Assembly: GCA_030704615.1 (NCBI GenBank)
Contig: CM060733.1
Location: 35,340,001 to 35,404,000 of the forward strand
Direction: 5' to 3'
Source of the DNA: Takakia lepidozioides
Lineage: Eukaryota > Plantae > Bryophyta
DNA length: 64,000 nucleotides
Of the stretch, positions 185-59,126 are shown piece by piece. Within the stretch, counting starts at the first letter, position 1. Each line of letters opens with the position of its first letter. The notes beneath the pieces are model-generated. The model ran no database searches, was not told where the DNA came from, and saw nothing but the letters and a program-made list of their open reading frames with translations. The position numbers and the translations under genes are program-made.

Positions 185-2679
185 AATTAGGAAATTACTA
201 CTACAACTGAAGCTGTGGAGGCCGGGACGCTTGCAACCATTATTGACGACATTGATGCAGGGAATTGGGGGGCAGATGAGTATGAAGAGGATACAACATC
301 TAGTGATCCTCTTTCTCTAGATGCCAAACAGGCAATTATTCTGGAAAAGAAACAAGATCTGAATGTAACTTTCAGGTCCCTCCTCATTGAGGATGGAGTT
401 ATGGACATTCCATTGTGTCGCATGATTTCTATGCAGGTTGTTAGGCCCGCCCTTGCCAACGACATCCTAAAGCTTAGAGGAGACTTCTATTCTGGATACC
501 ATCCAGGAGCAGCCGTGTTCTATGTTTCTGTTGAGGGGATTGATGGATCTACTATAGATGTAGGTCCTGATATCATCTCTACATGGGATAGTCATTGGAA
601 AACAGTCAATGATGAGTTTGAGAAGTATCTTGAGTCCAAGCCAAAGTTGCATCATCTTCGGGGGAAGATGTTTCATGTCTGGGATGGGAATCATAGGCTT
701 CAAGCATGGTATCCCTATATCAATGAAGTTCATGGGGCCAACTTGTCAAGACATGTCTGTGTGACAAGTTGGGTGCTCAATGCGGACATTGAAAATCGTG
801 GTTCCCTCAGGTCCATCATGGATGGAGTGAATGTGTGAGTTTCCTTTCTATTCTTCATTTACTTTCATGTTCAATGTTGTCATGTTCTTGCTCAATGGAT
901 GTACATATACACATCTTCTTTCTAATGATCATATTTTATATGTGCAGGGCAACAGAGAGGGCACATGTTACATCCAAATTTGTGCACTTGGTTTGCAAGG
1001 TCAATATGATTGGCCTTACACCTGTCTCTGAATGGAAGAATGTATTGAGGAAAGAGCAATACGACGAATGCAGGAAAGACTTGGTATAACCTGACAGTCC
1101 ATGCAATGACAGAGATTTTGTACAAGGTAACATCATGTCTTAACCAAGTTTCATTCTTTGCATCCATAGACAAGATTCACCTCTGGTTCATGTTATGAAC
1201 TGTTTTGGTTCTTTTGGCAGCATGATATTGTTGAGGCCCAACGCATGGCGGGGGAAGCTTACAAACTTGCTGAGGGGCCAAAGAGTCAAGAGGGCCTTGA
1301 AGATACAATGAGACAGGCTGGATTGAAAGCAAGGGAGCAACACAAGAGTCAGCTTGTGAAGTTGCTTCCTATTGCTGATCCAACCCTTGGAGAGGGGTTT
1401 CTCCAAGAACTTAAACTGCATTGGTCACGTGTAAAGGCAGGATCAGAGGAAATGACCCAAGAGAAAATGGTGAACATTGCTACCGCCCGGGTGGATCCTG
1501 AAGAAAAGGTGGAATGGCTACATATATGGAATGGAGACCAAACACTTCACGACCATAATTTTTTTCCACCCGGGCCTATCAGTGGGCCAACACTTGATCC
1601 TTGGCTGAATAGAAGGACTTTTTGGTGGCAGGTACATATACAATCACTATCTTCTCAATGCAATTAATTCATTTTGTTGATGACACATTAACATAGTTAT
1701 TTAACTGACTGTATTTTCTGGCAGCTCCGCAAGGTTGCCTTGGCTCAGTTTGCCTTGTACACCACTCAGCTTGGCCAATTTCATGTTGCCTTGGAGGAAG
1801 GAGAGAGTGAGAGTCTGGGAGACTACATGGACACATGGAAGATGACTCATTTCAATGAGTTGTTTCATAGAGAGTTCTCATTGCCAAAGGGGCCATTCAG
1901 AGGCAATGATTGGGAACAACAAACAGGTGGTGAGACGGATTTTATTCAGGTACCATCTTTCCATTGCATTGTACATGGATAGTGTATACACCTTGTAAGT
2001 CAAAAATGTCTATGCTTCAAGTATTTTTCTAGTACATTGGGATATACATGTTCAATTGTTGAACAGGTTGCATAAATATTTGTCTCCACAATAACTTTGA
2101 ATGTGTTTCTATTTTAGGTACATGAGATTTGTGCTTGTACCGAGTGATCGACTTAAGGCTGAGCCCAAGTTTCTGATGGCCTGGAAGTTTGGTGCTCAAC
2201 AAGCTTCCATGTACACACCTGCAATTGAGGAAGATTGGGGTGTGGAACACCGGGAAGGGGGGGGTTGGTATTTGGATATGCCCAAGGGTACTATCCCCTA
2301 TGTAGAAATGGGACTTCATAAGGAATGTGTTCGCAGGCAGTCAATGAGTGATGAAGGGGGTATCTCCACTGAAGTCCCTGTTCTTGATCTGGAGCATGCA
2401 GAACAGATTGCCACACAGGCCGCTGACGCTGTAGCCCAAGTGGTCCCTGCCGTTGTGGGTGTACCAAAACGCAAATCACAAAAAAGAAAAGGTGCGGATG
2501 TCAATGCAGGTGTGGCCCCCAATGCAGGTGTGGCTTCTATTGCTGGTCCTATTGGTAGTTCTTCACATCCTTCAAATCAGTTGGTTGTAGTGCCTGCACC
2601 TACTACTCGAGGAAACAAGCCAAAGGCAGGCGAACATCCTTACAGTGCAGTGTCATTTTCTGGTGGTGCACCTAGCATG
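185..2679 (+). pseudogene. ParB-like/DNA-methyltransferase fusion gene, outer copy, 5' part (multi-exon, interrupted by the MULE at 2680)
   Basis: The exon at 215-834 has IPLCRMISMQVVRPAL...MFHVWDGNHRLQAW (ParB/Srx DGxHR motif). Later exons (~948-1126, ~1221-1631, ~1725-1949, ~2118-2679) align in order with the minus-strand copy at 5909-10854, e.g. KSQLVKLLPIADPTLG vs KSKLVKLVAIADPALG and WYLDMPKG vs WYLDMSGG. Introns are GT-AG. The 5' start probably lies before the window. Confidence 0.8.
2671..2679 (+). other. Left 9-bp target-site duplication CCTAGCATG
   Basis: An identical 9-mer lies at 18379-18387. Removing the insert restores the reading frame GGAPSM-YRMKIMPTHF. Confidence 0.92.
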
Positions 2680-2760
2680 GGCTGCTATTTCATGAGCCAT
2701 GAGCCATGAGCGGCATGAGCCATGAGCAGAGTCGTAAGTGTGGAAAAAAACATGAGCAGC
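2680..2760 (+). repeat. Left TIR with tandem CATGAGC motifs
   Basis: ggctgctatttcatgagccatgagccatgagcggcatgagccatgagc, mirrored at 18315-18378. Confidence 0.85.
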
Positions 2761-3138
2761 ACTATTTTCCGGAAATGAGTGTCCGCGGGAATAGGGTTTA
2801 GGGTGCCACAGTCATAGGGGGAGAAGGACCTCCCGATGAAGGAGGTTCGGCAATGTTATTTAGAATTATATATTGAAAGGCAATGTTTCGCGAATGGTAG
2901 GGTGGTACTGCTCTGTACAATGGGGGCCCATTTCAGCCTACCAGCCACTTGCAAAATCCACCCACACTCCCAATCCCAAACGAAATGAGCAATGACGCAT
3001 TCTCGGAACGATGGACACAGAATAGAATAAAAAGAGGGCACAATGAGGTTTTTATTGATCCACATGAATTGCATTTGAAGCACGTCTACTGTGCTGATTG
3101 TGCCATCAAATCTTGAGCCTGTGCCTACTGAATACAAG

Positions 3139-3702
3139 TCACGTTGTCAATGGGACTTCGACTGCTCTCAGAACTAGCTCATGAGTCATGGGGCTCCTCC
3201 ATGTAAAGTCGATTGCAGCCGTTGTACCGCCCCTAGTGATGTTCACCACAATGTCCTGCCCTTCAATCATACCACCATCGAATATGGAAATCTTCACGTT
3301 TTCGTCGTCCACACCAATGCGAATGTCCCCATACAATGGAGAAGAGGAGCGCACTCCTTGAGGAGAATAGGTCTCTCCGATGGAGTCCACCCACGTCCAG
3401 TGGCAGCAGTTCCACCGCAACAGCATAGCAGTGCGCCTTCTTCTGCATGGGTGACCGTCGTAGCTGGGAAAATCGGAATCGAGGATGCGCAGGAGCCACG
3501 GACTCCTCAGACCAAGATCGTCACCCCGCTCGAAGGCGTAGTGGCCTACGATATACTCAAAAGCCACCAATGTTTCCACAATCGAACCAGTATCTTCTCT
3601 GTAATCTGTGTACCAGATAACAATGTCTCCCGATGTGGCCGAATACATTGCATAATCGATGCCTCCAAATGGGCAGTCGTCCCGGTTCCGGAAGCACGGC
3701 AT
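3139..3702 (-). CDS. Orphan MULE cargo protein X1 (187 aa)
   Basis: Intronless ORF with full-length similarity to 4252-4830: DCP..G.DYAM...SGDI..W, RWNCC.WT, YGDIR, DGG.I.G.DIVV, ELVLR..EVP. Confidence 0.75.
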   Translation of the reverse strand: MPCFRNRDDCPFGGIDYAMYSATSGDIVIWYTDYREDTGSIVETLVAFEYIVGHYAFERGDDLGLRSPWLLRILDSDFPSYDGHPCRRRRTAMLLRWNCCHWTWVDSIGETYSPQGVRSSSPLYGDIRIGVDDENVKISIFDGGMIEGQDIVVNITRGGTTAAIDFTWRSPMTHELVLRAVEVPLTT

Positions 3703-4251
3703 CCTTGCAAAGGAGGACCTGAGGACGACTTGGATGCCGATGACCTTGCGGACAGCTACGAAGCCCTTAGATTTTGGAAATGATGCGAAGCGGAAGAGCA
3801 GTCGGCCTCCAATAATGGAGCATCTGGGTCACACGTACCCACCGACGGAGGTGGAACGTGTTCATCACGCTAGCGGTGGATGAACCCATACATCTTTCTC
3901 ATCAACAAGTTATAGTTTGAGATCTGCCACCGAAGTCCATCCCCCCGGATGGAAATTCGGCGCCGCATTTACATCGAAGAGGGGATGGACTTCGTCGTGT
4001 CCAGTGGCTATCGGCCCACCTGGCAGTGACTGCCCATAGTTTGCATGGCAGGGTAGGAAACTGAAACGGCTACATTCATGCAGCAGCCAATCTTCATCGG
4101 TCCAGGATCCTGTAGGGGGGAAATTTAAATGTGCCCTGGAGTGTTTGTGAGGAATTGCAGCGTTAGCTTGAACTTTTTCCAGCCACCGCGCTGCTCCTCC
4201 TCCATCCGGGAGCTGCTGTCATTGAGCGTACTCCGCTACTCTTTTTCAAGG

Positions 4252-4830
4252 ATGTCGTGCCGCCAAAATCCAGCCGACTGCCCTTATCATGGCCACGATT
4301 ATGCTATGTTCAAACCAGAATCAGGAGACATCATTGTCTGGCTCTCTGTTTTCACAAACGCTGCTGGAATCAAGCAAGAGTCTTTGCGCGCAATGGAGTA
4401 TCTGGAGGGCTATTACCGCTTTGAGCGAGGTGAGGGCGAGGGTCAATGCGGTCCGTGGGTCCTGAAAATTGTTGACCTCGATATACCAAGCTGGAAAGGG
4501 ATGCCGGATAGATCAGGCACGGCCTCGCTTTGGCGCTGGAACTGCTGCCAGTGGACCAGGGAGGACGGCACCGGGGAAAACTATATACGTGCAGATCACT
4601 CCGCTCTTCCAGTGTATGGAGACATTCGGCTGAGTTGCGAAGACGAATCGCACGGGCACATGAGGCCCACAGTGACCTTGTCAATGTATGATGGTGGTAT
4701 CATTGATGGACATGACATTGTCGTCGGCTCCAGCAAGGGCAGCAGAATGACCGAATTGCAGTTTACCTCGAGGTGCCGCAGCAGTGATGAGCTTGTTTTG
4801 AGGGGTATCGAAGTTCCGTCGACTTGGTGA
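4252..4830 (+). CDS. Orphan MULE cargo protein X2 (192 aa), paralogue of X1
   Basis: ATG at 4252 (MSCRQNPADCPYHGHDYAMF...) aligns with the X1 start. Both ORFs are open despite nucleotide divergence. Confidence 0.75.
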   Translation: MSCRQNPADCPYHGHDYAMFKPESGDIIVWLSVFTNAAGIKQESLRAMEYLEGYYRFERGEGEGQCGPWVLKIVDLDIPSWKGMPDRSGTASLWRWNCCQWTREDGTGENYIRADHSALPVYGDIRLSCEDESHGHMRPTVTLSMYDGGIIDGHDIVVGSSKGSRMTELQFTSRCRSSDELVLRGIEVPSTW

Positions 4831-5087
4831 AGCCCATGTAGAAGGAGGAAGGGCTTAGTTTTGTCTGCAGTTGGTAAATGTGAGACATCGTGTCCGATCA
4901 ATAAACCCATCGTACCTCACTTCTGTATGATTGTGTTTCATTCTGTTGAATAACTGTCGGAATTGGCCCACTGTTTACAATTTGATGTCTCATTTCTACA
5001 ATGTGTCTGTCCGGATGAATATAGCAGAGTAACCGGTATGTGAGTCATGTGTCAAGAATATACCAGAGTAACGCCATGTCGGACATT

Positions 5088-5770
5088 GAAATGCGGCGCC
5101 GCATTTCCATGTCGGACAAGAAATGCGGTGCATCATTTCCGTCCAGGTACACGAAATACCAACACGGGTCTATAAATTGGTCAGAAAACGAGGTTGGCAT
5201 TGCAAATGCGGCGACGCATTTCCAGCTTGGCAATGGAAACTTCTTTTTGGACAAGGGAATGCGGTGCCGCATTTCCGTACAACACTTCGAAAAGTGTGAC
5301 ATTTCCGACCAGCGCGATGGAATGCGTTACCGCATTTCCGAGAGAGGGTCTGCAAATGGACAAATTGCGATGTCCGTTCTGGAAATGCGGCGCCGCATTT
5401 CCATGTCCGTCATCGATTTTTTTTACAATGGAATGCGGTGCCAATTTTTGCTGATGGGCCTGCAGTTCGAACAACGACCATCCCCAATATGAAATGCGGC
5501 ACCGCATTTTCAATTCCGCCATCTCGACCTCCTTGTTCGACCTCTGTAAGCGTGGTGGCATCCATGCAATGAGCGGGAGAGGCCAAAACTGGCGTGTGGA
5601 CAAAGGAAATTTTGGAAATGCGGCACCGCATTTCCAATTCAGATTACTTTTTACTATGCCAACATTGAAATGGAAAATTTAGTCCCTCCCCTGTTTTGGA
5701 AATGCGGTGCCGCATTTCCAAAAGAGGTTCTTAGAGTTGCCAAAATTTTGGAAATGCGGTGCCCCATTTC
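5088..5770. repeat. Cluster of ~11 GAAATGCGG-YR-CCGCATTTC palindromes
   Basis: Copies near 5088, 5204, 5257, 5320, 5381, 5491, 5615, 5699 and 5751, some imperfect. Confidence 0.9.
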
Positions 5771-5908
5771 TGATTTTGGGAGCGTCGTGGTTTGAGGCGA
5801 TTGTGTGGCTGGAATGCACACTGGAGAGGGGTCACGAATGTCTGGCAGAATTTCCTTTATATACTCTGGAAGAGAATTTACATTTACAGAGACTTCATTA
5901 AAATTCTA

Positions 5909-8900
5909 TTAATCTTGAAAATCATCCGAATCCTCATCCTGTTCTAGACTGTCCTGCTCCGCCTCCACCCCCTCAGTGCCTTTCTCATCTCCAGCGGACT
6001 GCTCGTTGGCCAGGCTTTCGAAAATCCCATCTTCCCCTTGCGGAACTGTCCATCTCACCTCCGTTGGGTCGTCTTCCTCCCTGTCTGCGTCGCTCTCATC
6101 CGCTGAATCACATATGTACTTTCGTACCCGTCTACCTGTCTGAGCTGCTGCCAACTCTTTCCTTATCCTTCTGTCCTCCCTAGCCCTCTCCAAAATCTGC
6201 TCTACTTTACTGGGATTCTCACTTCTTCTAATCGCTGTATTTGCGAGTTTAGCTGCATAACTAGGAAGGGAGTAGTCCCTCACCGGGCTCGTCATGAAGT
6301 CGGCCCTCGCAAAGAACGGGACATTCTTCCTGGCAGGAAGTGTAGGCCCTACATGTTTCGACCCGGACCCTGCAATCCTGCACATGACAATCATCAACGA
6401 GACTAATGAGAACCACAGTCGGGAAATTCGTTTGACATAAATGACCCAGAAGGCTTTGCAAACTTACAATGTTTGCACTCACTCGTATTCCGGGTTCTCC
6501 TCCGCATCAATGTCCACTGTGTCTTCCTCGGACTCCGACGAATCCGAGGAGACTTCCGCTCTGTCGGGAGCCTTAACATTCCGTTGCAGCCCTTCCAGAT
6601 GGGATCCCCACACGGATGAATCCTCCTCGTAGGCAAAGAGGTGCCGGTCGGAAAACCGCCCAGCCCACATTGAGGCACCTGTTACAATGCCATCCACACA
6701 TTACCACATGGCGCTTCAGATGTTGCGAACTACATCCTAACGAGAATTTGCAGAACAGCATAGATCAAGATTCTGCATACCTGTCCCACAGATGAGGTCG
6801 AGCACTGTGCCCTCCACGTCTGTGCATGTCTCCATAATTGTCTGAATGAAGGCAGGGCTCCGAGTCCGTGAGTACCGCAGGGGTTCCGTTGAAGTGAGGC
6901 TATGAGGGAGAAGTTCCTTGGGAACGTTGTTGAACAGAACGTCGTAATCGAGTGGGTCGCAGTTCGGGTCAACCTTTCCTCCCTCCTTCCGGAAAGCAAA
7001 GGTGGAGTTCTCCTTCACAAAGCAGTATGCATCGAACTGCTTCGTCTGCATACACAGGGGGAAAACGATTAGAAACCGAATGCGGCACCGCATTTGAAAA
7101 CACCCAAGCAAATGAATGGACGAGTGCCAGTGTCGTAATCACCTTCTTCCCTTCCGACCGAAGGCCCAGTGTGTTGATGCACGTCCACTTCTTTTTCAGA
7201 ATCGGGACGGCGCTCTTGCGGGTCCACTTCGCAATTCCTGTCTGAGTGTTTTTTCCTCTGCTCGCCAGGACAACCACACAGCCTCTGTCGTCCAACACCA
7301 TGCGGGCAAGCCCGAATCCTTTCTTCCAAAAGTCCTCCGAGTACCTGTTCCAAGATGGCAAAGCTTGCAGTCCTTCCACAGGCTCTCCGTCCGGAATATC
7401 CAAGATGATCATATCGCAAGACCACTCGGTGGCATTTCCGCCCCTCCTACAATCCTTGTCTGCACACACCCTCTCAAAGAACGAGACCATATTCTGAAAT
7501 CCTGGGGTGTCGGAAGGCTCTTCGGCAGTCGCCTTCTTCAGTGCTCTGCCCTTCAGACCCTCCATGGTCTTCATGTATGCCAACTTGGCTGCCCGTCCAT
7601 CCAAAGCCGCCAAGAAACTCTCATTTACACACTGGACTACTGTTTCGGGAGCCACTTTCGGCCTCTTCATTTCCACCGGCTCGAAAGGGTGCCCCCCTGG
7701 GGGGTTGAAGAGTGCCTTCTTTGCCGAGCCAGTTCTCGTGCCTCTCGTGACAACGGTGGGCACAGGGGAGGCAGCCTGCGTTTGGGGGGGTGGGCTGGTT
7801 GCAAAGTCTCCATCGGAGTCCTCTTCCTCACCCTCTTCCTGAACAGGCTGTTTCTGCTTCTTCGTTTTGGCGGGTGTCACAACAGCTGCTCCTTGCTGGC
7901 GAGTCCTCTTCTTCGACCCCTTCTGTTGGGCCTGCACAGCTGCATCCACCGTCTTTTGTGCCATCTCAGCTGCCTTTCTGGATTCTTCCAGAGCAGCAGA
8001 TTCCTTTGCCGACTTTGGCCCAGCAGGGACACGTCTTTCCTTTCTCTTCTCTTCTGCCAAGGCGTGCAGATCTTTCTCAGACTCGTCAACAATACCGCCA
8101 GACATGTCCAGGTACCACGGGCATCCAACGAGATGCGCGGGATGCCATTGTTTCTGCATCTCGGGTGTGTAGACACAGCTTGGGCCCGCCACGGTCCAAG
8201 CCATGAAGAACGGGGGCTCTTGAGCCAGGGCCCCTGTCTGAAGGAGCACGTATTTCATATACCTGCAAGGCAGTCAGCATGCGTGAGCAAAAGTTGAGAC
8301 CAACCTACTCGCAGAGTGCCACCGAAAACATAAAATGCGAATGCGGTGCCGCATTTCCGAGACAAACCTCGTAACCAGGCTTCGCATACAAGGGCAGCTG
8401 TGCTTCACCTGTAAACAATTCGCATTGCAGCTTTCCCCGCTCCCTCCTGATGTGTAAACTCCACGCTCCTTCTTGCTGTCTGTAGCTCTCTGGCGAAAAG
8501 GTTGTCCTTGTACGCACATCTGAAACGTGTCACGTAGTCTTCCAATGTCTGTGTTCCATCCCATTTGACGTACAAGCCGAACGAATTTGTGTGCATTACG
8601 ACTTGCTCCTTCGCATTCGACATTACCTGCGATTCCCAAATGCATTGTCACGTAGCAGTTCAGGGAATTCATTTCAGAAAAGCAAATCTGGGGAAGTACC
8701 TTGAATTACCTGGAACCACCAAGTCATACGGTTGAGCCACACATCCACTGCAGGGTCGGAAACTTCGAGTGGAAAAGACCACATTGTCCTTATGCTCTCG
8801 GATGCATTCCAGATCGACAGCCACCGTGTCTGCCATTTCCGATCCAATGTCAGGAGCTGGAAGAGAGTGGCTATTGCTAGGAAGGAACTTCAGTGCATTG

Positions 8901-10854
8901 AAACCTCACCTTCTCTTTCGCCTCCACACATGCCGTTGAGAGGTGATGCAGTTTCTCCAATTGCATGGTCGGCTGCATGGCCCGAGAATAGTGTTTTGCA
9001 ATCTCGGGGATGAAGTCCTTTCCAAGTGCCGGATCTGCAATTGCCACCAGCTTCACAAGCTTTGACTTGTATTTGGTTCTGGACTTGACACCGGCTTCCT
9101 TCAAGTGCTCAGTCAATGACTGCAACGTTTTGACCTGCCCCTCACTTTCCATGAAGAAGCGTTTGGCATGGGCCAAATCCAGCTTGATGTTTGACTGCCA
9201 ACAAAAACATGCAGAAGCGTTACATTCGATTCATGTGGAAACATTACTGAAAATTGGGGAAGGATGAGCAGAGGGAAATTGGAGGACGACTTACTTCGTA
9301 TATCACCTCCACCATTCCATCCATAGTGAGACGATACCATGTCCGGTCTGTTTTTGCAACGGCTTTCTGAATGAGCTCGGGCTCCAGCATTTCCGCAAAC
9401 ATCTGCGGATCAGTGAGACCAGTTTTCCTCACCCTGTACAGCATGCATGTGCCATGTGGGTATGCACGTACGCATTCTCAGTGACCCTGCAAGGCACACT
9501 CTCCAGTTCAGTACACGGAAGCACGGAAACAAACCAGAATGGAAACCGAAATGCGGCACCGCATTTCGAACGTGCTAGGGAGGGTATGAGTATCTTACGA
9601 GTTGAGGTCCGCCATGGCATTCTTGAGCAGGGAGGAGTCTGCCGCCTTCACCTTGAGGATGACACACTCCACCATGTAATGCCAGCCAATGTGCTTGGCA
9701 TGGTTCTGCTTGATGTACTCCCACCAGGCGAGAAGTCGGTGATTCCCGTCCCACACAAAGAACATTTTACCCGACATATGGCCGAAGTCTGGATCACCCT
9801 TCAGCGTCGCCTCGAATTCGTCGTTGCGAGTGTGCCAGTGGGTATCCCACGTTGACAATTCATCGGCAGTGGGTCCACGAGTTTCGCCGTCCTCATTCTC
9901 AATGGAAACGTAAAACGCTGCCGATCCCAGACGGTACCCTTCTCGAAATGCGAACTTGAGCTTATCCACATCTCCGGGAAGGGCCTGCCTGACGATGGGA
10001 AGGGAGACCATGCGACAGAGTGGGATTCGAAGAGTCCGCTGGAATACCCTGCTGCCCAGAACTCTGCCAATGCTACTGTGTGTCTCCTCCAACATTTTAT
10101 CCGCTGCACTTTTGAAATCCTCCGGAGACATGTCTGTAGGTGCCGGTAGTGGCTGAGCAGCTGGAGCATCCTCAACTGGAGCTGCACTCTGGGGCCTGTC
10201 TGCGGGCAATTCTGCCATTGCAGAGGCCTCCTCCGGGCCTGCTTGCTCATCGGTGGTGAGGTCTTGCTGCGAACGTTGAGCGGCAGCACCCTCCTCCGGT
10301 ACCAAATCGAGATCAACGGTCGATCCCATTGCCTTCGCTGCAGCAGAGTCGGCCCCAACATCTGCAGGCGGGAAATCCTCCAGGAACTGAGCTTCAGCTC
10401 GTGGAAGCGGTTTTGCGGGAGATTGTTCGCCCGTCGCCCTGATTGCCTTCTGCTTCCTCATCCTTGCAGGTGAAGGTGTCTGCTGCAATTGAATCTGTCT
10501 TCTACCCTGCTGCTTCATTCGCGTTGGGGGGGGTGAATCGGCCTGAGCCGGTTCAGAAGCCAGTAGAGGGACGGGCTGCTTCTTCTTCGACTTTGCTGGA
10601 GAAGGGCCCGACCCCTGCTGGCGATTCTCCATGACCGAAGAACGCGAGTCGATCTCTGGGACTTTGAACTTGCCCTTCGAAGACGCGTCTTTGAATCGCA
10701 CAGGGCTAGGCCCGGCAGGAATACCCGCGCTCGGGGATCGGGTGGGTGTACGTGCTGCAGCTAGCTCCTCGGACTCTTCCTGCGGCTCTTCGGATTCCTG
10801 CGATCCCTCCAGCACGTCCACCTTTCCTGTTAGGCATGCAAACATGTTCTGCAT
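5909..10854 (-). CDS. ParB/Srx-like domain + beta-class N6A/N4C DNA methyltransferase-like fusion gene (multi-exon; apparent 2-nt frameshift near 9445)
   Basis: ParB-like part: LRIPLCRMVSLPIVRQAL...FFVWDGNHRLLAW (~9736-9750). MTase motifs in beta order: CDMIILDIPDG (motif IV position, 7389-7400), RMVLDDRGCVVV (cf. RVLKPGG), RSPAFIQTIMETCTDVEGTVLDLICGTG (motifs X/I, ~6781-6870), and after an intron ASMWAGRFSDRHLFAYEED (cf. AA..GR..IG.E.D). GT-AG introns, e.g. 9487-9598. The 5' end is uncertain; there may be an upstream exon at ~10916-11120. Confidence 0.82.
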
Positions 10855-11473
10855 TCAAGTCTCCTAGCATTCAGTCTAAGAATTACAGAAGCAAAATGGG
10901 GGGTTCGGTGCTCGATCAGCTGCGCGCAGCCCGATCGCATGGAGCTCTCACTGGTGGCTGGGTTGCCTGAGTGGCCTGCTGCTCGGAGATGGCAATCTCC
11001 TCCTGTAGACGCATCTGCTTCCTCCCCTTCGGCATTGGCCTACGTCCGAAGTATAATTTCCGGAGCTTGCGACGAGGTCTCCTGTCTGGTGCACGAACTC
11101 CCCCCCTCTCAGGTTCGAGCATAAGAAGAACAGAGAGAGGGAAAAGGGGCAAAGAGTGCAGATGGAAAGGGCGCGAGAGGGGTGACTGAGGAGACACGAC
11201 AAAAGTAGATGAAACGGCGGTGATGCACCACTTGGGTTCGAAAGGGTTGGACGAAAGTGTCTCCTCGTGGAGTTTGCGTCATTACGAAATTCGAATCGTT
11301 GAGGGTACGCCTGCCGTCCGAAAAACAAACATCATTATCCAACGGTCAGGCCGCGCCGCCTCATGCCCCTTCAGTCAGATAGAGTGCCGACATGTGCAGC
11401 AATTCCGTTGCTCCACGTGTTCACATTTCAAGGTATTTCCGTCCCAGCGTCTGATCAGTTGGAGCGAAAATGC

Positions 11474-13492
11474 GAATGCGGCGCCGCATTTCCGTTAAGT
11501 ACCATCACGAAGCTACACATCCGTACTTGTTGGAAGAAAATGCGGCACCGCATTTCCGTCCCACAGCTCCATGTATGAGATTCAAAAGGGAAATGTGGCG
11601 CCGCATTTCCGTTCTGGAATGTCGAAAGGTGCGATTGGGACGGGAATGAGGCACAACATTTCAGTTCCCGTGGTTCATGATTTTCAATGTGAACGGAAAT
11701 GCGGTACCGCATTTCCGTTCCCACTTCACATACGTTAGTTGATGAATGGAAATGCCGTGCCACATTTCCGTTCGGGAAAGTATAGAGGTCTCACCTGGAC
11801 AGATGCGGTGCCGCATTTCCGGTCTGGAAAGTTTGAAGGTCTCACATGGATGGAAATGCGGCAACACATTTCCGTAGCACAGCTCCAGGCCCCATATACA
11901 AAACGGAAATGCGGCGCCGCATTTCCGTTCTAGAATGTCGGAAGGTGCGACTCGACGGAAATGCGGTGCCGCATTTCTGTTCCCGTTGCGCACGATTTTC
12001 AGTCAGAATGGAAATGCGGTACCGCATTTCCGTTCTGTAGAGTATTAACGTCTGACGCTGGCGGAAATGCTGTGCCGCATTTTCGTTCCACAGCTCCATG
12101 CCTCACATACAAAACGGAAATGCGGCGCCGCATTTCCGTTTTGGAATGTCGGAAGGTGCGACTCCGACGGAAATGCGGTACCGCATTTCAGTTCCGATGT
12201 TTCAGGATATTTCATCAGAACGGAAATGCGGTGCCGCATTTCCCTTTTGAATTAATACATTCCGTTCTGGAATGTTGGGAGTGCGACTCGGAAATGCGTG
12301 CGCGCTGCCGCATTTCAGTTCCGATGGTCACACGATTTCAGTCAGAACGGAAATGCGGTAGCAGCATTTCCGTTCTGGAATGTGTAGGTGCGACTCGGAT
12401 GGAAATGCGCTGCCGCATTTCAGTTCCGATGGTTCACGATTTTCAGTCAGAACGGAAATGCGGTACGCGCATTTCCGTTCTGGAATGTTGGTAGGTGCGA
12501 CTCGGATGGAAATACGCTGCCGCATTTCAGTTCAGATGGTTCACGATTTTCAGTCAGAACGGAAATGCGGTGCCGCATTTCCGTTCTGGATAGTATGAAT
12601 GTCTCAAGCGGTCGGAATTGCGCTGTATGAAGCTGTCGGAATCGCACTCGCTCAGCATCAGATACAAATGGAAATGCGGCGCCGCATTTCCGTTCTGGAA
12701 TGTCGGAAAGTGCGACTCGGACGAAATGCGGTGCCGCATTTCTGTTCCGTTGTTCATAAATCTCAATCAGAACGGAAATGCGGTACCGCATTTCCGTTCC
12801 ACCTTCACAACCGTGCTTGTTGATGAAATGCGTACCGCTTTCCGTTCTGGAGAGTAGAATGTCTTTAAGGACGGAAATGTGCTGCAGCATTTCTATCCCT
12901 CAGCTCCATGCATCAGATACAAAATGGAATGCGGCGCCGCATTTCCGTTCTGAATGTCGGAAAGTGCGACTCGGACGGAAATGCGTGCCGCATTTCTTTC
13001 CCGTTGTCATAATTCTCAATCAGAACGGAAATGCGGTACCGCATTTCCGTTCCACCTTCACATACCGTGCTTGCGTGATGCGTACCGCATTTCGTTCCAT
13101 TCACATGTGAATGAAATGCGCCGCATTCCGTTCTGGAGAGTATGAATGTCTTTTAAGGACGGAAATGTGCCGCAGCATTTCTATCCCTCACTCCATGCAT
13201 CAGATACAAATGGAAATGCGGCGCCGCATTTCGTTCTGAAATGTCGGAAAAGTGCGACTCGGACGGAAATGCGGTGCCGCATTCTGTTCCCGTTGTTCAT
13301 AATCTCATCAGAACGGAAATGCGGTCCGCATTTCCGTTCCACCTTCACATACCGTGCTTGCTGGATGGAAATGCGTTACCGCATTTCCGTTCTGGAGAGT
13401 ATAAGGTTTCCCCCGGACGGAAACTCGGTGCCGCATTTCCGTCGCTCTGGTGCATGACCAAGATGCAATACGGAAATGCGGCGCCGTATTTC
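11474..13492. repeat. 53-bp-periodic array of ~38 22-bp palindromes (GGAAATGCGGYRCCGCATTTCC) with ~5 recurring spacer types
   Basis: GAAATG starts at 11590, 11643, 11696, 11749, 11853, 11906, 11958, 12011, 12064, 12117, 12170 and 12223. The array lies between the divergent ParB-MTase and transposase genes. Confidence 0.95.
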
Positions 13493-13921
13493 CGTCCACC
13501 AGCAATCGAAAGAATCACTCGGACGGGAAATCTGGAACCTCAATGGGTTGCATTGTTCCGAAACAACACAATTGCGGCCAGTCTTGATGAGCACAACTTG
13601 GTTGTCTGACCGTTTTAACCAGCAGTCCTGGCACTTGTCAGTGCGAACGTTCCTGTCTGCACCGAGAATACTGCTGGATCCACCCTCAGGAGAAACTGTC
13701 AGGAGATGTTATTTCGTCGCCGAATCGGCCATCATTGTCATACTCACTGGCTATGGAATCAAACCTCCCACCTTCATGCATGTAGCTTGAAACAATACTT
13801 TCCACTTCAATGTGCGACTTCCAATCGTCGATGGACTCCGCAGATCCACTTAGATGGTGCCTGTGAGCCTTGGTCTGTCGCTATACTGAACCTCGCACTT
13901 GCCAACTCCGTGCGGTGTTCG

Positions 13922-16900
13922 ATGGCTCCGAATTCCTACGCTATAGTTTGCTGTCCTCCGCAACTTGGGAGAGCCTGGATCCCAAACGAGGGAGGACTTT
14001 GCAGAGTGACTGAAACTTACCTTTGTTCCAAATTCAAGCTCAAACCGGGCACAGTTTATTTGGAAGAAGAAAGGAAGGATGTTCCTGGACAGGTTGACGA
14101 GACCATTGTCGTGCTAGGTAACGACGGAGGTTGCGGAATCGAATGGCACGTTCCCCCGTCAGACACCATCCTGTACCGAGCTGTGGGAATGCCCATTCCC
14201 TTTCCGAATCAGTCGCTGCCCACACCATCCACAAAGGAGTCCGGAAACCGAGAGGCGGCCACTGCCAACAGAGAGGTATGCAACGATAATCATTCCCGAC
14301 CTGGACCGTCAAGACCCTCCATAGCTTCTCGTGTGGACGTATTCGACATTTCCGACGAGGAAGATGATTGCATTGAGGTACCCATGTCCTCCACACGGTC
14401 GTTCAAATCCGGCATGGACGTCTCTGTAGGTGCTACGCATGTGCCCTCGAGCATAACTCCAACCCGGTCCATTGTGCAGCTCCTACGACAACATCACCTC
14501 GATGGTTCTCGCTCCGAGCTGGCTGCTCTCGACTATGCCAAATTCCCAGTCAGAAAGGTAACTTTTCTGCCTCCCGAAGTCGATGGCAATGTCATCTTCG
14601 AGTTTCCACCTGTTTCTTCGTCAAACAAAGCCTCCGGGATGTTAACAGACATGGATCGAAAGCATGACGGACACCCCTGGTGTGTGACGAAGACCAGTAG
14701 CACGAAAATTGCTGATGGTGTTCGTGTACGATATGTCCTCTGTGCGGGGAAGCTGAGGTGCCTCAATCCCACCTGCTTCCACTTTCTCTCCAAAGGAGGG
14801 CGGAGAAACGAGACGGATTGGACTGGCACAACGCATCATCCATTCATTGTCTCCAGCCAAGCTCCTGCGGGTTCTTTCAAGTGTGCACATTGCAAAGAAC
14901 CACCGACGTGCATGTCCATGTGCAGAGCCAAGCAATATTACGTAATCCATTTGCTCCCGGACTTGACTAGAGCTTGCATACACGTTGGGGTCCACTGCCA
15001 CCCCTTGGCGAGAGGCAACATGCGTGAGGCTGTGCAGGAAGCACACGACATCATAAAAGAGGAGGTGAAATTGAGCCCCGGAGCCAGACCAAAGCAGATT
15101 CAGCTGAAGGCAGCCCACAAGATTGCTCTTGGCAAAATCATGTCTGAAGATGGTTCCGACCGAGAGCCCTTGACCGAAGACGAGATGCGTGACCTCTTGG
15201 AGTCCGTCTCGCACGTTTGTAGTCCGAATGTGCGGAATCACATCGTATCTTGCAAGCAGGAGTTCGGCAGGGGGTCGGACATGTACTCAATCCTGGAGGT
15301 GAAACGAATGACTGGATATGACTACATCCAAGGTAGCAGGTTTCCAGGGCAAGGCAGCGAATCCGATCGTTGTTACATTTTCAAAATGTCGACGTGTGGG
15401 CCTGGGAGTGGAGTCGACTTGGTCACTCGCATGACAACTGGAAACTTGTCGAATGCTTGGGTGATGTTTGATCACATCAAGCGAATTACAAACCATCAGT
15501 GGGTGACTATGGGTGCGCATGTTTATGACTATCACTCCAAGAGGCTCATGACGATTGCAATCTGCGAGATGAAAGGGGAGGACACACAGTCCGAGATGCA
15601 TCTGTGGGAGGGCATAAACGAGCAGATGGCAAGGGCGGGATTGCCAGAGCCCAATTTCAGGGGATTCATGGCAGACAACGCTCAGGCCAACTGGGCAGCG
15701 GTGCGGCGTGTGTACGGTGAGGACCCCAATGTTCCAATGGAGGGGAAAGAGAGATCCTGTGGATTCCATTGGATGCAGAGTCTATCCCACTACACTACCA
15801 AATTTGTTGCTAGCTCATTCCAGGCTGAACACCGTGTCCTTTGTACGGCGTGGAAGGATGCACCCACATTTGATGACGCGGAGGTTAAGTTTGCTATCAT
15901 CGAGGCTTGGTGGAACACGTCAGGTGCAGTGGAGACAACCAATCTGGGAGCATTGCACAGCTGGTTGGGGTGGTGGCATTTTCGGTATCGACAGTTCGGA
16001 CAGTACATGCGGGAGGTAGGCTGCTGTCATTTCGTTCATTTGTCTTTCTGTTACGGACATTTCGATTGGTCCCTCACCATTGTTTGTGTCCTTCTAGGAG
16101 CGGTGCTTGGATTCCGACACGGACATGCCGAACACGAATATGGCAGAATCGGTCCACTCCTCCTGGCGAGCGTCTTCTGCCGCACATCTGGTGGACGTAG
16201 TGACGGCCACAACGGAGGACATCGACAGAGCAATCATGCAGCAAGCCACGTACTACAAGTTCCTGAGCGGCAAACAATGGGGCTTTGGGCCGGACAGGGA
16301 GGAATTGTTGGTACGAACAGCTTCGAGGTCCAAGAATCCAGTGAAATGGGCGACAGCATTGCGAGAGAAGATCAAAGGGACGCCTCTGCACCGCAGAGGT
16401 GAACACCTAGAGGGGGACGTCCGGACTCGCCCTGTCAGGCGGAGGATTGAAGAGGAACCCGGGTGCGAAGAGGATTCCTGGAGATCCGACAGGAACATTC
16501 GGACAGCACCTCGAGGTCCCGTCATGTTGCCGCACAATGTGTCTTCCAGCAGTGGAAGCCCAAGAAATTCCAGATCGCCGTCGCCTTCAACCGGGGATTT
16601 CGTGCAAAAATTCCCACCGCTCCCTTGCCCCAGATTCCGCCCGCTGTTATGCAGTATGGCCAAGCCATTGTGGAGACGACTGTGTCTGCATCACAGTGGA
16701 GAATTGCTCGCACAAAGCCGTCGTTTCGAGGAAGGTGTTCCGCAATTCGTGTGGATACACGGCAACGTTGTTTAGAGATGATAAGGAGGAATCCAGATGG
16801 GGCTGTCCCTGCTCCTACTTTTACAGGAAGATTTGTCCATGCAAAGTTTGCGGAGGCGACAACCACCCAGTTCTGGTTCTGCAGGCACGACATTATGACT

Positions 16901-17527
16901 TGCGTGTATGGAAAGCCCAAGTACGGCATACAAACAATGCCAGAGGCTCCCCCGGTGTGGCCGGTGGAACCAGGCTGCGATCTGAGTCAGGTTGAGGCCG
17001 ACGCCCTTACCGCCGCAGGATTTCGGATGGTGCAGCGCACTGACGTCCCCAGAGAACCATTTCCGCTTCCACAGCCTCCACCACCGACCCCTGTGAGAGC
17101 AAGAACAATGGGACACGACAGCTCTAAGCATCCTACACACCGTTGGGGGAAACCGAAGAGGCGGCGACCTCCCTCAAAAGTGAACGAGACAAGGATGGGG
17201 AATGCACTTCGGATGAACTGTACAATCCAGAGCTCGACAGAAGTGCCCCCACCAGGATTCGGGCGTGTGTATCAGATGGCCACGGCGGGCTCAGCTGTTC
17301 GCAATGAGGTGTACACCATCACCATTTCAGAATTACCCACCTGCAATTGCACCGACTTCCAGATCATGGCGAACAAGGGGGCATCATACTGCCCTTGCAA
17401 GCATTTGTACTACGTGTACCTAAAGAGACTCCGTTGTAATTCCACAACTCATCACTTCATACATGCACCAGGGTTGAGCCCCCAGGAGGTTCACACTCTT
17501 CTGAATATGGATCCAGGGGACCAGTGA
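13922..17527 (+). CDS. MULE-family transposase: GCM/WRKY-like Zn DNA-binding domain, DDE core, Cys-rich domain, SWIM finger
   Basis: DGHPW...CAGKLRCLNPTC...CAHC...C...GVHCHP; WVMFDH; FMADNAQAN; ERSCGFHW (CxxH). Intron 16016-16097 joins in frame to TNMAESVHSSW (catalytic E). SWIM: CNCTDF...CPCKH. One -1 shift in an A-run near 16606-16610. Confidence 0.88.
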
Positions 17528-18274
17528 GCTTGGCTTGCGGTCCCCATACAATGGTACGCCCATCCTTTTCGGATAGTAGAACTGTACTGCTGCCAGTACC
17601 TCAGACTCTGGCCACAGAAAGGTCCGACATATGTCTTGCCTACCAGTAACCTGTTTTGCTCGAACTAAGATATTACTATATCGTTCACTTGTTTCCACGT
17701 GCATGTATTTTTGTATGTTGGAGGGTTCATGTTTTTCTGCTTTCCGAAAACTTGCTTTCCTCATTCGACCTCCGACAAGGAAATGCGGCGCCGCATTTCC
17801 AAGTATCGTCGTAGGTACCTCCAGAGGCGGCCTTCGCCAACACCAAACCGCTCCGAAATTTCGCACGTGCGAACCCTAATGCGGCACCCTATTTCCCAGT
17901 TCAGTTGCAAACCTTTCCCGCCGAATACCCGAAGAAGACAGAATTGTGAAGTACTGCAGACTGTATTGGTGCAGACTCCATTGGTTCAATCGCGGCAAAA
18001 GGGTCAGCTTCATTCCAATGTTAAGGCATGTAAAACCGCGGAATACTCTATACAGGCCAGTATGCGACGTCCTTTTGCAGTGGTATACTGGATTTCCCGT
18101 TGCACGGTCACTTATTTCCATGAGCGGATCTAAAAAACCATGAGCGGACTTGTTACTGACGACATATCTTCGCCGCATTACATGATCTGGAACGTCCAAA
18201 AACGGCAAGGTCAAATAAAAAACTATTATTTTAATACTTGTTTAATCTGCCGCATTTCCAAATTTGGAGGAGTC

Positions 18275-18378
18275 CGCTCATGAAATCCGCGTATCTTAGA
18301 CTTCGGCTCACCGCTCATGCGGCTCATGCGGCTCATGGCTCATGGCTCATGGTTTCTGCTCATGAAATAGTAAACCTC
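18275..18378 (-). repeat. Right TIR with GCTCATG repeats
   Basis: gctcatgcggctcatgcggctcatggctcatggctcatggtttctgctcatgaaatagtaaacctc, then TSD 18379-18387. Confidence 0.85.
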
Positions 18379-19638
18379 CCTAGCATGTATCGCATGAAGA
18401 TCATGCCTACTCATTTCATTGGTATGGTGGAGGCCTCAAGTAACTCTCCTGATGCGACCTTGAAAGAAGCTCATTGGAGTTCTTAAAAAATATGAGTTTC
18501 CCCAACAAACAAACTTGAATGTAAGGAATTCTTCGATGTTTTGATATCCTCATCATCCGGCTATTGACTCCTACATTTTTTCTGTATGTTGTTTGCAGTT
18601 GCCAGGAACTGGGCTAGTGTTTATTGAAATGACAAAGCGTGCATGTGGCTGTGGACATGATCATCGTGGACGCCCAACAGGAATGCCTGTAACGGGCTGT
18701 TTGGATGGTGTCCAGGTTTTCCCTAGAATGCTTTTTGATAAACGGTATTGGGAGTATGCAATTCTCCATTGCTAATGACTTGTTGTCTACAATGGATGCT
18801 TGGGTTTCTTGGCAGGGCTCCGATGATTCCTTTGCATTGGACTCTTTTTTTACTCCAGGGGCAGCTCTATTTCCGTATTATCAAGGAAATATACTGCATC
18901 AATCACCACCCTCTAACAATCAGACATGAAGGTTAAAAATAATCCCTCTTCATATCTCATTGTTTAATGTTTCATCTTCCTACTCTCATACATATTATGA
19001 AACCATCCGGGTGCCTGTTTTTTGTGGAAAATGCCCGTCCTAACAGACCATGTTCTTCCACGCCCATAGTCCTCACCAAGCAAGGAGGCTATTCAAACTG
19101 CGTGAGTCTGGCAAAGTTGTGGACCCCCTTGCAAGACCCTGTTGAGTTGGATGCCATCTACAATCACATTCCAGATGTTGCACGCCCCATGTCACACTCC
19201 TCAACAAGCCTTGAGGGGTGCGCGAGACCGTAGTTACCCGCCTTCATGCACGTGTTGTGTGAGACAGGCTCACCCCTCCTGGCTCCGCATTTGGATCTCA
19301 CTCACAGCTGGCACATGTTTGCATTGGTCTCCATGTTTGTAATTAAAATCTTTGAGCTGATTCATGATCATTAACTGTTATCCGATATCAGATCATCATT
19401 GCTGTTTTTTTCCTGGCAGGTTCTACATTTAGGCTGCCGCGAGGCTGGACGTCACGTATTTGGTCTTGAGGGGGACCAGACGTTTGTATGCAGCACGTCT
19501 TCTGCACTTCAAAATACTCAACCCGTTTTGGTTTCATCTGTGGTAACTCCAACCATTCAACGTCCTGTGAGTTTGTTGGAACCCCCCGCTCCTAAGGTGG
19601 CGCGCAAGCTTGGTCTTCATCTCGGCAGTACTTCCTAG
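18379..19638 (+). pseudogene. ParB-MTase fusion gene, outer copy, 3' (methyltransferase) part, frameshifted
   Basis: Continues as PSMYRMKIMPTHF; VDMIIVDA/PTGMPVTG (~18651-18695, cf. CDMIILDIPDGEPVEG); PAFMHVLCE...LDL/TAGT (~19235-19315); GCREAGRHVFGLEGD (~19431-19476). Confidence 0.75.
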
Positions 19639-20352
19639 TGAGTATGTCTCGCCTCCATTCCCTTTGTTGCAATCTCTATATTATTTGCAAAGCAAACCAT
19701 TCCCATTTGATTTGTTAACATAAGTATACATGTATGTGTGATGCAGTGATGGGATTGTGCGGACCATCTACGATAGTCTACCCCAAAGTCCTCTTTCATC
19801 GTTTTATCTACCTTCGTTGTGGGTTCTATCTCTGATGGACATTATGTTTTTGTAAAATAAAAATGTTTCAGAAGATAGATATATAGATACTGCAAAACCT
19901 ATGTAACAAAGCTCCCTAGCATTGTCAAGCTCCCTAGCATTCCCTTAGCATTGCTCCATTCTAAACTTCAAACTAGACTCCCACCATTGGAAGAGCCCGT
20001 ACCTTCACCATTTGTATCTAACAAGGAGCCGTGCCTCGTCACTTTTTAATTTTTCGACCTTTTTTCTCATGTTGGAAAGCCATAAAAGCAACATGTTGCT
20101 CTCCCATTCCTACACTCACCCATGTGGAATAATAATACAATGAATATGGAATATTCTATATAGAATATTCTTATTCCATCCTTTGATATTTTGACTATGG
20201 ACCCTAAGATTAGATGAATCACAATTTTTATTTTATTTTTGGGTACCCTTATTTAAGTGTTGTGCATATAAAATTGTTCCTATGCATATCTAAAATTTGT
20301 ATGCACGCATACATTCCTCCATATGCATGCATTTGTGTGCGCATATAGTATA

Positions 20353-20830: not shown

Positions 20831-20879
20831 CACCGAATCTCCAGTTACATGGCCCAAGAACTACCCAACATCTGTGCAA

Positions 20880-47812: not shown

Positions 47813-47849
47813 TTACCCCTTCCCCCTCAAAAAGCCGTGTCCTCACGGT

Positions 47850-59105: not shown

Positions 59106-59124
59106 GTCCCCAGTATGGTCGCCA
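59106..59124 (-). other. Primer-binding site TGGCGACCATACTGGGGAC (tRNA-Arg-like)
   Basis: 2 nt from the 5' LTR; starts TGG; TGGCGACCA is complementary to the ...TGGTCG-CCA end of plant tRNA-Arg. Confidence 0.7.
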
Positions 59125-59126
59125 AC

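Follow-up and report, generated by a model that had tools for sequence, protein, structure and literature searches.

The closest described relatives of the gene studied here are accessory genes of algal transposons that combine a ParB-like domain with a methyltransferase (MTase). The Sola1-1_Ec32 accessory gene of Ectocarpus encodes a protein of 1,104 aa with ParB-like and N4C/N6A MTase domains, which is proposed, in the available text of the report, to bind and modify its own element (PMC12477816). The present gene lies in the window, the whole 64,000-nucleotide stretch of Takakia lepidozioides DNA that was analysed. It resembles the Ectocarpus gene in being DNA transposon cargo on the strand opposite to the transposase and in encoding a ParB and MTase fusion, but it belongs to a Mutator element of a land plant and not to a Sola1 element of a brown alga, and the two are likened by description only. 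The available text predicts an active enzyme for the algal protein and mentions neither the catalytic motif nor palindromes. Algal sequences did not surface in the homolog searches, in which the sources of 10 of the 150 listed ParB matches were checked.

The Plavaka genes PAG2/PAG3 of Bostrychia and other red algae include a ParB-like domain, a PF01555 methylase and inverted-repeat arrays beside the ParB gene, and homologs are reported on Chondrus Mutator elements (bioRxiv 10.1101/2025.02.11.637652, in its accessible part). The window element shares the ParB-like domain, the PF01555 methylase and the tandem inverted-repeat arrays; unlike in the window protein, the two domains are described there in separate genes of EnSpm/Plavaka elements, where ParB is joined to a 2OG-oxygenase and the methylase to SET. 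In Arabidopsis, the VANC protein of VANDAL elements binds short motifs that stand in arrays between the genes and inside the introns of the Mutator element that encodes it (PMC5735166, available text). As here, a Mutator-like element carries an accessory protein and family-specific motifs tandemly repeated in non-coding DNA, but the VANC targets are 8-9 bp non-palindromic motifs whereas those described below are 20-bp palindromes, the available text does not report VANC as ParB- or MTase-like, and anti-silencing is demonstrated for VANC while it is inferred here.

Among MTases, CcrM, M.BceJIV, M1.MboII, M.RsrI, M.PvuII, rotifer N4CMT and Marchantia DN4MT1 share the fold and the motif order with the window family, for which a dimer is tentatively predicted. 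These enzymes carry D/S-P-P-Y and the motif X His, but the window family has neither; its non-canonical motif contrasts with the TSPPY of Marchantia DN4MT1 (bioRxiv 2021.02.12.428880), with which kinship was considered. METTL14 also keeps the MTase fold without catalytic residues, but, according to the accessible part of PMC8287941, it has lost the catalytic Asp too and has an active partner. The MTase domains of DIRS1 retrotransposons are transposon-borne like the window family, but they belong to a PCIF1-derived structural group and have no ParB in the available account (PMC4738411). No description of the land-plant family or of its motif was found in the literature, and subscription papers, Repbase, Iyer et al. 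2011 or bioRxiv supplements may contain one. ParB-methylase transposon cargo is already reported in algae and assumed active there; the literature searched yielded no catalytically altered Mutator lineage of land plants.

The Mutator-like element and its accessory gene

The accessory gene is the cargo of a young and abundant Mutator-type element, with the following features:

2680..18378, no strand: inner Mutator-like element, 15.7 kb (sequence read directly)
13619..17527, plus strand: MULE-type DDE transposase with a C-terminal SWIM finger and one intron (ESM Atlas, SWIM match)
5909..10826, minus strand: accessory gene (GT-AG model; 5' end putative)
10826-9599, 9486-9295, 9194-8910, 8829-8710, 8626-8409, 8262-7143, 7045-6781, 6678-6483, 6377-5909, minus strand: accessory-gene exons
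9601..10104, minus strand: ParB/Sulfiredoxin-fold (ParB/Srx) domain (AF2 pLDDT 93.6; fold search)
11473..13492, no strand: main palindrome array (GAAATGCGGYRCCGCATTTC, 20 bp), which separates the divergent genes
5088..5770, no strand: another cluster, of 10 palindromes, lying downstream of the accessory gene
7077..9567, no strand: single palindromes in three introns (7077, 8338, 9548)
3952 and 17780, no strand: further single palindrome copies
191..2679, plus strand: outer decayed accessory copy of another subfamily, 5' part (ParB domain 45% identical)
18388..19640, plus strand: outer copy, 3' part with MTase remnants

The element is flanked by a 9-bp target duplication (2671-2679 and 18379-18387) and ends in imperfect inverted repeats with the shared core CTATTTCATGAGC and short subterminal CATGAGC repeats. 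The defining features of a MULE are all present, namely a DDE transposase, the 9-bp duplication and terminal inverted repeats, the last being short and imperfect. The transposase falls in an ESM Atlas cluster labelled PF10551 MULE (0.94; 61% of members in that cluster), and its D, D, CxxH, E pattern, read by eye, is what we take to be the MULE signature. The SWIM finger, matched at E 0.036, below the Pfam cut-off, is the sole Pfam result for this protein; a KDZ/Zisupton assignment, which it suggested, was dropped for MULE on the Atlas PF10551 label and the 9-bp duplication. The transposase frame of the window copy is broken between the 16098 and 16451 frames. A divergent transposase stands beside the accessory gene in 6 of 66 loci, which represent three distinct elements. 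Abundance is judged from 41,310 contig pieces, mostly at least 95% identical, in run X1, which may be the source of the studied DNA itself. The extra ORFs at 3139-3828 and 4129-4830 have no match in Pfam, PHROGs, NCBIfam or the 66 loci.

The accessory-gene model is open over 1,362 codons (~1,360 aa), save one copy-specific 2-bp insertion at ~9445, upstream of the MTase domain, which is absent from most of the family and had been overlooked in the sequence-only reading. The protein is built of a low-complexity N-terminus, the ParB/Srx domain, a central region, a linker, the MTase-fold domain and an acidic tail. A contig from run X9, a run that is guessed to be RNA, shows two of the gene's introns joined. 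Contigs joining the MTase introns were not found, and one X10 contig reads unspliced into intron 7046-7142; the MTase introns lie at the same places in locus L001.

Pfam found nothing in the accessory-gene exons of the window. The fold search placed the N-terminal domain in the ParB/Srx superfamily, to which the best 10 of 13 matches belong, the best being PadC at a middling Z of 7.7 (rmsd 2.8, 95 aligned). In agreement with these matches, the ParB-N fold carries a Box I Arg, a GxxR and a terminal Asn, seen in the window as VR at 9993, DGNHR at 9750-9736 and the terminal Asn, and these positions are conserved in the family (R39 83/100, G120 102/116, N121 113/116, R123 94/115, N168 72/85). The adjacent ParA gene of canonical ParABS systems has no counterpart among the ORFs of the element. 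The nucleotide preference of ParB-type domains is unpredictable from sequence (PMC12704722), and in a phage ParB-dioxygenase pair the NTP residues are dispensable (PMC13229309). A word-based search with the ParB exon gave no match among longer proteins, pattern scans for a ParB relative gave none in viral contigs or prokaryotic genomes, and phage sequences searched with tblastn yielded nothing for ParB and, for motif X-I, weak similarity to adenine MTases (E 4e-3 to 6e-2); from these sequence comparisons, a phage origin of the family is at most plausible. The ParB/Srx fusion, inside a Mutator-like element with its own palindrome arrays, is the context that best explains the MTase-fold domain, and it had been omitted from the earlier reading.

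The window contains 45 palindromes (0 expected), 44 of them inside the element, and none of these 44 overlaps coding sequence, though this makes up 58% of the element. In the main array 19 of 28 spacings are 51-53 bp. Relatives bear subfamily-specific palindromes: among loci of at least 5 kb, related 20-bp palindromes beat all 20 shuffles in 22 of 45 and show no excess in 23, with cores that were chosen after seeing the data and with many loci that are repeat assemblies of one site. The core type follows the ParB tree with 1 change; because kin share labels, the tree is no proof of co-evolution.

Motif IV and the cofactor pocket of the MTase-fold domain

The MTase-fold domain is described by four stretches:

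7389..7400, minus strand: motif IV, DIPD, of family pattern D-hydrophobic-P-x (profile, contigs, census)
7347..7358, minus strand: PSWN, with the Trp aligned with the Trp of CcrM HWD (family profile alignment)
6781..6880, minus strand: motif X, altered from HPTQKP to YSRTRSP, and motif I, VLDLICGTG (profile, alignment)
6620..6661, minus strand: motif II, GRFSDRHLFAYEED, acid kept (alignment)

The sequence-only reading had reported DIPD as the catalytic tetrapeptide and IV...X-I as the motif order; the former is encoded at 7400-7389 of the minus strand, and the order IV...X-I-II is found spread across two GT-AG introns. This permuted order, with motif IV before X-I-II, is that of beta-class enzymes, and the match to PF01555 (E 5e-5 to 9e-6) stays just below the Pfam cut-off; phmmer with the two MTase exons against PDB gave chance matches or none. 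In the family profile motif IV is aligned with CcrM DPPY, and in an AF2 model of a Riccia homolog its Asp ends strand 24-30 of a beta-class fold, which places the motif on the catalytic strand.

The odd motif is real and not decay, and all branches of the family share it, whether from liverworts, from ferns or from moss-like plants. The census of motif IV comprises 92 domain matches, of which 78 span the motif and 54 are left at 90% identity. Its loci and long proteins came up by way of the ParB domain, which frees this portion of the sample from bias by the motif. Canonical D/N/S-P-P-Y/F/W occurs in 0 of the 78 homologous motifs. In the 54 non-redundant rows position 1 is Asp in 41, position 2 is never Pro, position 3 is Pro in 37, and position 4 takes 11 different residues, mostly E, S and T. 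The base-stacking aromatic, noted as missing in the window copy, is absent family-wide: position 4 is aromatic in 2 of 78 motifs, one being a real DVPF of a single fern protein (P0122) and the other a misaligned decayed row. DIPD is the family consensus, and substitutions reaching 1% are absent across 7350-7450 in 682 + 119 contig pieces, where runs X1 and X3 count as one sample and may be the source of the studied DNA. The PSWN Trp is kept in 50 of 52 non-redundant rows. In the outer copy, which the tree puts with L005/L006/L024, motif IV at ~18669 is interrupted where Asp meets Cys: one base is missing there when the copy is compared with two relatives of its clade (DCPV, DCPM), so that it is better read as DCPT than as the DAPT proposed earlier. 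Neither of the conditions that the sequence-only reading had named as refuting it, canonical motifs in most intact homologs and a motif away from strand 4, is borne out. The broader suggestion, a pseudo-enzyme or altered enzyme retained in diverged subfamilies, therefore stands, and it holds for Riccia and Adiantum as well as for many moss-like loci.

The SAM-binding half, initially described as intact, is so only in part. The stretches of motifs I and II are encoded as read (TVLDLICGT at 6808-6782, GRFSDRHLFAYEED in the next exon), 18 of 21 rows keep the motif I Asp and 22 of 24 the acid of motif II, but the motif X His and Thr are kept in 0 of 23 rows of an alignment read by eye, and alignment A6 has no conserved residue for the motif III Asp. 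The motif X Lys/Arg is kept in 22 of 23 rows, and motif I differs between clades (DLICGTG, DWNASTG, DFAGGWG). In the available account of rotifer N4CMT, the fourth residue of motif IV stacks the target base (as modelled there), the third-position Pro packs the cofactor, position 2 gives only its main-chain carbonyl, and His253 and Asp88 bind the cofactor (PMC10406627). METTL14, without the aromatic and without D/N, is described as inactive (PMC8287941, accessible part).

The AF2 model represents the Riccia homolog and not the window copy, with a mean pLDDT of 63 and values below 50 over residues 200-226 (motifs I-II), which makes it unreliable at the cofactor pocket. Its fold matches M.BceJIV at Z 10.9 (rmsd 4.1, 175 aligned), and bacterial beta-class enzymes score Z 10.1-10.9 against 7.4-8.4 for METTL3/METTL14 and MTA1/MTA9 chains. 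A homodimer model of the Riccia domain scores 0.37, against 0.01 for the best control, a pass that may be memory of the beta-class dimers already solved; its runs agree in at least 50% of contacts with pLDDT of at least 66. At this mark 21 of 30 solved pairs pass and no single chain does (0 of 23).

Over 68 codons compared with a contig of a diverged subfamily, 16 changes in the MTase domain are synonymous and 9 are non-synonymous. The pN/pS is thus 0.17, and it rises to 0.35 when each of the 10 unlisted differences is counted as non-synonymous; judged from these codons, the domain is under purifying selection. The observed/expected CpG at codon boundaries is 0.70-0.81 in the element genes, while the dead outer copy has 0.39 and six further ORF sets from the window have 0.20-0.54; a value for L001, computed in a wrong frame, is excluded. 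The contrast is at most an indirect sign of lost 5mC, confounded by element age and possibly by horizontal arrival.

Possible functions of the accessory protein

Established for this family are the fold, the losses of the aromatic and of the motif X His/Thr, selection, the ParB/Srx fusion, the linkage to a transposase and the non-coding arrays that differ between subfamilies. Loss of catalysis is favoured because the stacking aromatic and the motif X His/Thr are lost family-wide, and the protein probably performs no amino-methyl transfer. It is predicted with good confidence to bind its cognate palindrome. We give an even chance to the explanation in which the pseudo-methyltransferase serves a self-recognition clamp as its dimer or DNA-binding module, the clamp likely protecting the element against silencing. 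The ParB-fused protein would load on the element's own palindromes, its NTP-binding N-domain would gate loading or spreading, and the MTase fold would close the dimer, like the C-terminal domain of bacterial ParB, so that the element is kept unsilenced. By analogy, VANC-like protection from host 5mC silencing is a tentative outcome, with slightly less than an even chance. Against a dead domain, the catalytic Asp is kept in 41 of 54 rows, although a pure scaffold would not need it and METTL14 has lost its own, and one fern protein has DVPF. SAM binding may persist, since the Pro at position 3 and the Trp are retained, as are the Asp of motif I and the acid of motif II. The dispensable NTP residues of the phage pair also count against this explanation. 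The palindrome binder could also, by analogy, be the transposase instead of the accessory protein; the AtMu1 transposase alone is reported to demethylate its own termini (bioRxiv 10.64898/2026.08.24.746577, available text).

An active enzyme with a remodelled pocket, which we consider doubtful, would be delivered by ParB to the palindromes and write 4mC, 6mA or another mark on their CG-rich cores, blocking or replacing host 5mC, with a stacking residue supplied by another loop (e.g. the conserved PxWN Trp) or by a partner subunit. Members from liverworts, ferns and moss-like plants alike conserve Asp1, Pro3, the Trp, the motif I Asp, the motif X Lys/Arg and the acid of motif II, and position 2 of motif IV supplies only a main-chain carbonyl in the available rotifer account (PMC10406627); the accessible report on algal ParB-MTase cargo predicts activity (PMC12477816), and Marchantia shows that 4mC writers exist in the plant group (bioRxiv 2021.02.12.428880). 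The high CpG retention fits an active enzyme too. However, position 4 is unconstrained, with 11 residues in 54 rows, the family lacks the motif X His/Thr and the motif III Asp, its motif I differs from clade to clade, and we know of no characterised active amino-MTase without the aromatic. A bacterial-style, NTP-gated ParB clamp on the element's own parS-like palindromes, with the D-h-P-x domain as an active enzyme of new chemistry marking or shielding the CG-rich cores, is unlikely; if true, liverworts, mosses and ferns would have in common a conserved anti-silencing system by which the element marks itself.

Purely mechanical binding of the palindromes, pairing the ends, condensing the 15-kb element or assembling a transpososome with no role in silencing, is quite improbable. 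ParB proteins do clamp and spread on DNA from parS sites (PMC12704722), the element is long with short, imperfect terminal repeats, and spacings of 51-53 bp equal five helical turns, but they may be just the tandem-repeat unit, the palindromes lie in introns and promoters and not at the ends, like VANC targets, and CpG retention is high over the whole element.

Slightly less probable still is a scaffold or reader of the METTL14 type, a dead domain that would redirect the host modification machinery, either by teaming up with a host enzyme or by recognising a methylated base. The fold matches do include METTL3/METTL14 and MTA1/MTA9 chains (Z 7.4-8.4), and beta-class enzymes split labour between subunits, but the bacterial enzymes score higher (Z 10.1-10.9), the homodimer model passes (0.37 against 0.01, possibly as memory of solved dimers), the element encodes no active partner, and the lost aromatic speaks against a pocket for a flipped base. 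Simple decay of the motif in the window copy, which the upstream 2-bp insertion and the broken transposase frame might suggest, has a negligible probability and is refuted by the invariance of DIPD in the contigs at the 1% level and by the census (0/78 canonical), with a pN/pS of 0.17-0.35 also against it.

The algal transposon papers assume self-methylation by the ParB-methylase cargo, and the land-plant lineage is under selection without the canonical motif. Because the protein is kept under selection while the canonical motif is discarded, the conserved function may be binding or clamping and not methylation. The family gives a testable pair, a protein from a young, abundant and probably transcribed family and a predicted 20-bp target that varies between subfamilies. 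If binding and anti-silencing hold, prokaryotic parts would here have been assembled independently into a second system like VANC, and possibly into a eukaryotic ParB clamp.

Accessory gene and its protein

The window is eukaryotic, as the minus-strand gene under study is interrupted by GT-AG introns. This accessory gene belongs to a Mutator-like element (the inner element) and its product joins an N-terminal ParB/Srx domain to a C-terminal methyltransferase (MTase) fold.

2680-18378: inner element, 15.7 kb, flanked by a 9-bp duplication, its inverted ends short and imperfect
10826-9599, 9486-9295, 9194-8910, 8829-8710, 8626-8409, minus strand: accessory gene exons, GT-AG model
8262-7143, 7045-6781, 6678-6483, 6377-5909, minus strand: remaining exons, same model
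7400-7389, minus strand: DIPD, motif IV, read from the sequence

The exon model gives 1,362 open codons with a single break, a 2-bp insertion at about 9445, which is missing in about 3,100 of 3,650 summed depth in sequencing run X1 and in both covering contigs of run X4, from a different study. Two introns are joined in a contig of run X9 (the RNA nature of this run is a guess), and the predicted MTase-domain introns have the same positions in the intact metagenomic relative L001. The N-terminal domain has a confident fold (pLDDT 93.6), is ParB/Sulfiredoxin in the best 10 of 13 VIA rows (PadC, Z 7.7; KorB, 7.5) and retains the Box I Arg, GNHR and the terminal Asn.

Motif IV and the cofactor half

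The sequence-only reading had placed DIPD where beta-class amino-MTases carry DPPY, and both the family profile and structural modelling bear this out. The MTase exon groups with PF01555 clusters (0.93, ESM Atlas), and the profile aligns with CcrM (E 1.3e-4) so that D-I-P-x matches DPPY, PxWN matches HWD and GGREKC matches HPTQKP. In the AF2 model of the Riccia homolog P0154 (mean pLDDT 63; 80-89 near the motif, below 50 at 200-226), strand 24-30 terminates on the motif IV Asp, which keeps the motif on the catalytic strand. The best structural matches of this model are beta-class enzymes: M.BceJIV (Z 10.9, rmsd 4.1, 175 aligned residues), M1.MboII (10.7), M.RsrI (10.6), M.PvuII (10.5) and CcrM (10.1).

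Homologs came from a ParB-anchored protein search (504 proteins, 150 of them listed; sources checked for 10, Riccia sorocarpa and Adiantum included), a ParB-anchored search of metagenomes (66 loci) and two MTase-anchored searches, which added 26 and 31 proteins. They suggest that the host is a non-seed land plant. Among 92 domain hits, 14 lack motif coverage, and none of the other 78 has a canonical motif IV, which excludes decay of one copy as the origin of DIPD. In the 54 non-redundant rows, a few of them decayed and misaligned, position 1 is Asp in 41, position 2 is hydrophobic or Cys in 53 and never Pro, position 3 is Pro in 37, and position 4 is E, S, T, G, D or R in 49. P0122, from Adiantum nelumboides, reads DVPF and is the sole homolog with a real aromatic residue at position 4. 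The family's contigs contain no substitution at 1% or more over 7350-7450. Of 35 bases spanning the motif, a diverged subfamily contig has only 2 changed, and reaching DPPY would take more. Compared with this contig, the 25 differences available out of 35 yield a pN/pS of 0.17, and the worst case gives 0.35. The outer copy, a decayed gene of another subfamily, has lost one base at motif IV; since its clade relatives have DCPV and DCPM, DCPT is a better reading than the DAPT suggested earlier. The non-canonical catalytic motif is real and family-wide.

The SAM-binding half, described earlier as intact, is so only in part. An alignment read by eye has the motif I Asp in 18 of 21 rows, although motif I differs between clades, and an acid at motif II in 22 of 24. 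At motif X, Lys/Arg is present in 22 of 23 rows but the His and Thr in none of 23. Motif III shows no conserved Asp. In N4CMT the cofactor is packed by the third Pro and bound by His253 and Asp88, and the fourth motif IV residue is modelled as stacking the target base (PMC10406627). By these roles, the amino-binding Asp and part of the cofactor contacts survive in the family; the stacking residue and other contacts are gone.

Inner element, palindromes and neighbouring repeats

The inner element encodes a MULE transposase divergent to the accessory gene and sits inside the dead copy of another subfamily. The divergent gene pair is seen again in 6 of the 66 loci (three elements in all); most of the 66 are short or decayed. 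Codon-boundary CpG reaches 0.70-0.81 of expectation in inner-element genes, against 0.39 for the outer copy and 0.20-0.54 for six further ORF sets, a contrast that is confounded by age.

A 20-bp palindrome has 45 copies in the window, where chance predicts 0; 44 lie inside the inner element, none in its coding 58% and three within accessory-gene introns. In 22 of 45 loci of at least 5 kb, relatives of this palindrome with other arms are more numerous than in any of 20 shuffles, in a test whose cores were picked post hoc and whose loci are partly redundant. Subfamily palindromes (loci L005, L006, L009, L010, L031, L055 and L057) have differing 6-bp arms and a common CG-rich 8-bp core, CGGCGCCG or CGCCGGCG, which is heavily deaminated. 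A single branch of the ParB tree separates the core types, a split that relatedness alone could produce. In the palindrome of the window, whose main array is at 11473-13492, 14 of the 45 copies retain the central CpG, and 40 and 38 of 45 the two flanking CpGs, as if the half-sites were constrained and the centre free; tandem amplification could also give this pattern. In L005/L024 a 51-bp tandem repeat adjoins the transposase.

Several other features accompany these. Within the inner element, two divergent paralogous ORFs (3139-3828, minus; 4129-4830, plus; 43% identical) flank a palindrome at 3952; they are CpG-rich like the other inner-element genes, match no family and are absent from the 66 loci. 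At 20272-21297 a related transposase fragment (76% identical over 127 aa) is followed by palindrome-like words and an end like the inner element's right end, and is probably a third nested relative. A Ty3/Gypsy retrotransposon (46749-60211; LTRs 93.5% identical) has long extra ORFs 3' of its integrase (49364-52267 and 47850-49577), the last with a second copy at 29313-30776. The ORF at 26117-27094, in repeat-rich surroundings, has a NIF-like phosphatase domain (PF03031, E 1.7e-5) and is possibly cargo of another element. A tandem repeat of about 120-bp units occurs at 32449-33943 and 62374-62743, one copy being diverged.

Possible function and known relatives

We infer that the accessory protein binds palindromes, uses NTP, lacks catalysis and counters silencing. 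Most likely it would act as a dimer that recognises the palindromes of the inner element; the MTase fold would make the dimer contact, and possibly a DNA contact, in the role of ParB's C-terminal domain (compare PMC12704722). A homodimer model of the MTase domain scores 0.37 against 0.01 for the best control, which may reflect solved beta-class dimers already known to the predictor. The ParB domain would use NTP to control loading or spreading, and the bound protein would protect the element from host silencing, as VANC is described to do for VANDAL elements (PMC5735166). An active enzyme whose pocket has been rebuilt is the main rival; the kept motif IV Asp favours it and the lost stacking residue does not. 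A scaffold or reader role, or a mechanical one in transposition, is less likely.

ParB-MTase cargo is already a known kind of architecture. Ectocarpus Sola1-1_Ec32 carries ParB and N4C/N6A-MTase cargo opposite its transposase, like the transposon cargo of this land-plant family, and similar proteins from green and red algae are cited (PMC12477816). In Plavaka elements of red algae, accessory genes for ParB and a methylase adjoin inverted-repeat arrays (bioRxiv 10.1101/2025.02.11.637652), and DIRS1 carries inactive MTase domains (PMC4738411). Other related work is PMC8287941, bioRxiv 2021.02.12.428880, bioRxiv 10.64898/2026.08.24.746577 and PMC13229309. No description of a land-plant Mutator family with ParB-MTase, or of the altered motif, was found in the literature searched, and what appears to be new is a land-plant lineage whose catalytic motif is altered and whose palindromes differ between subfamilies.
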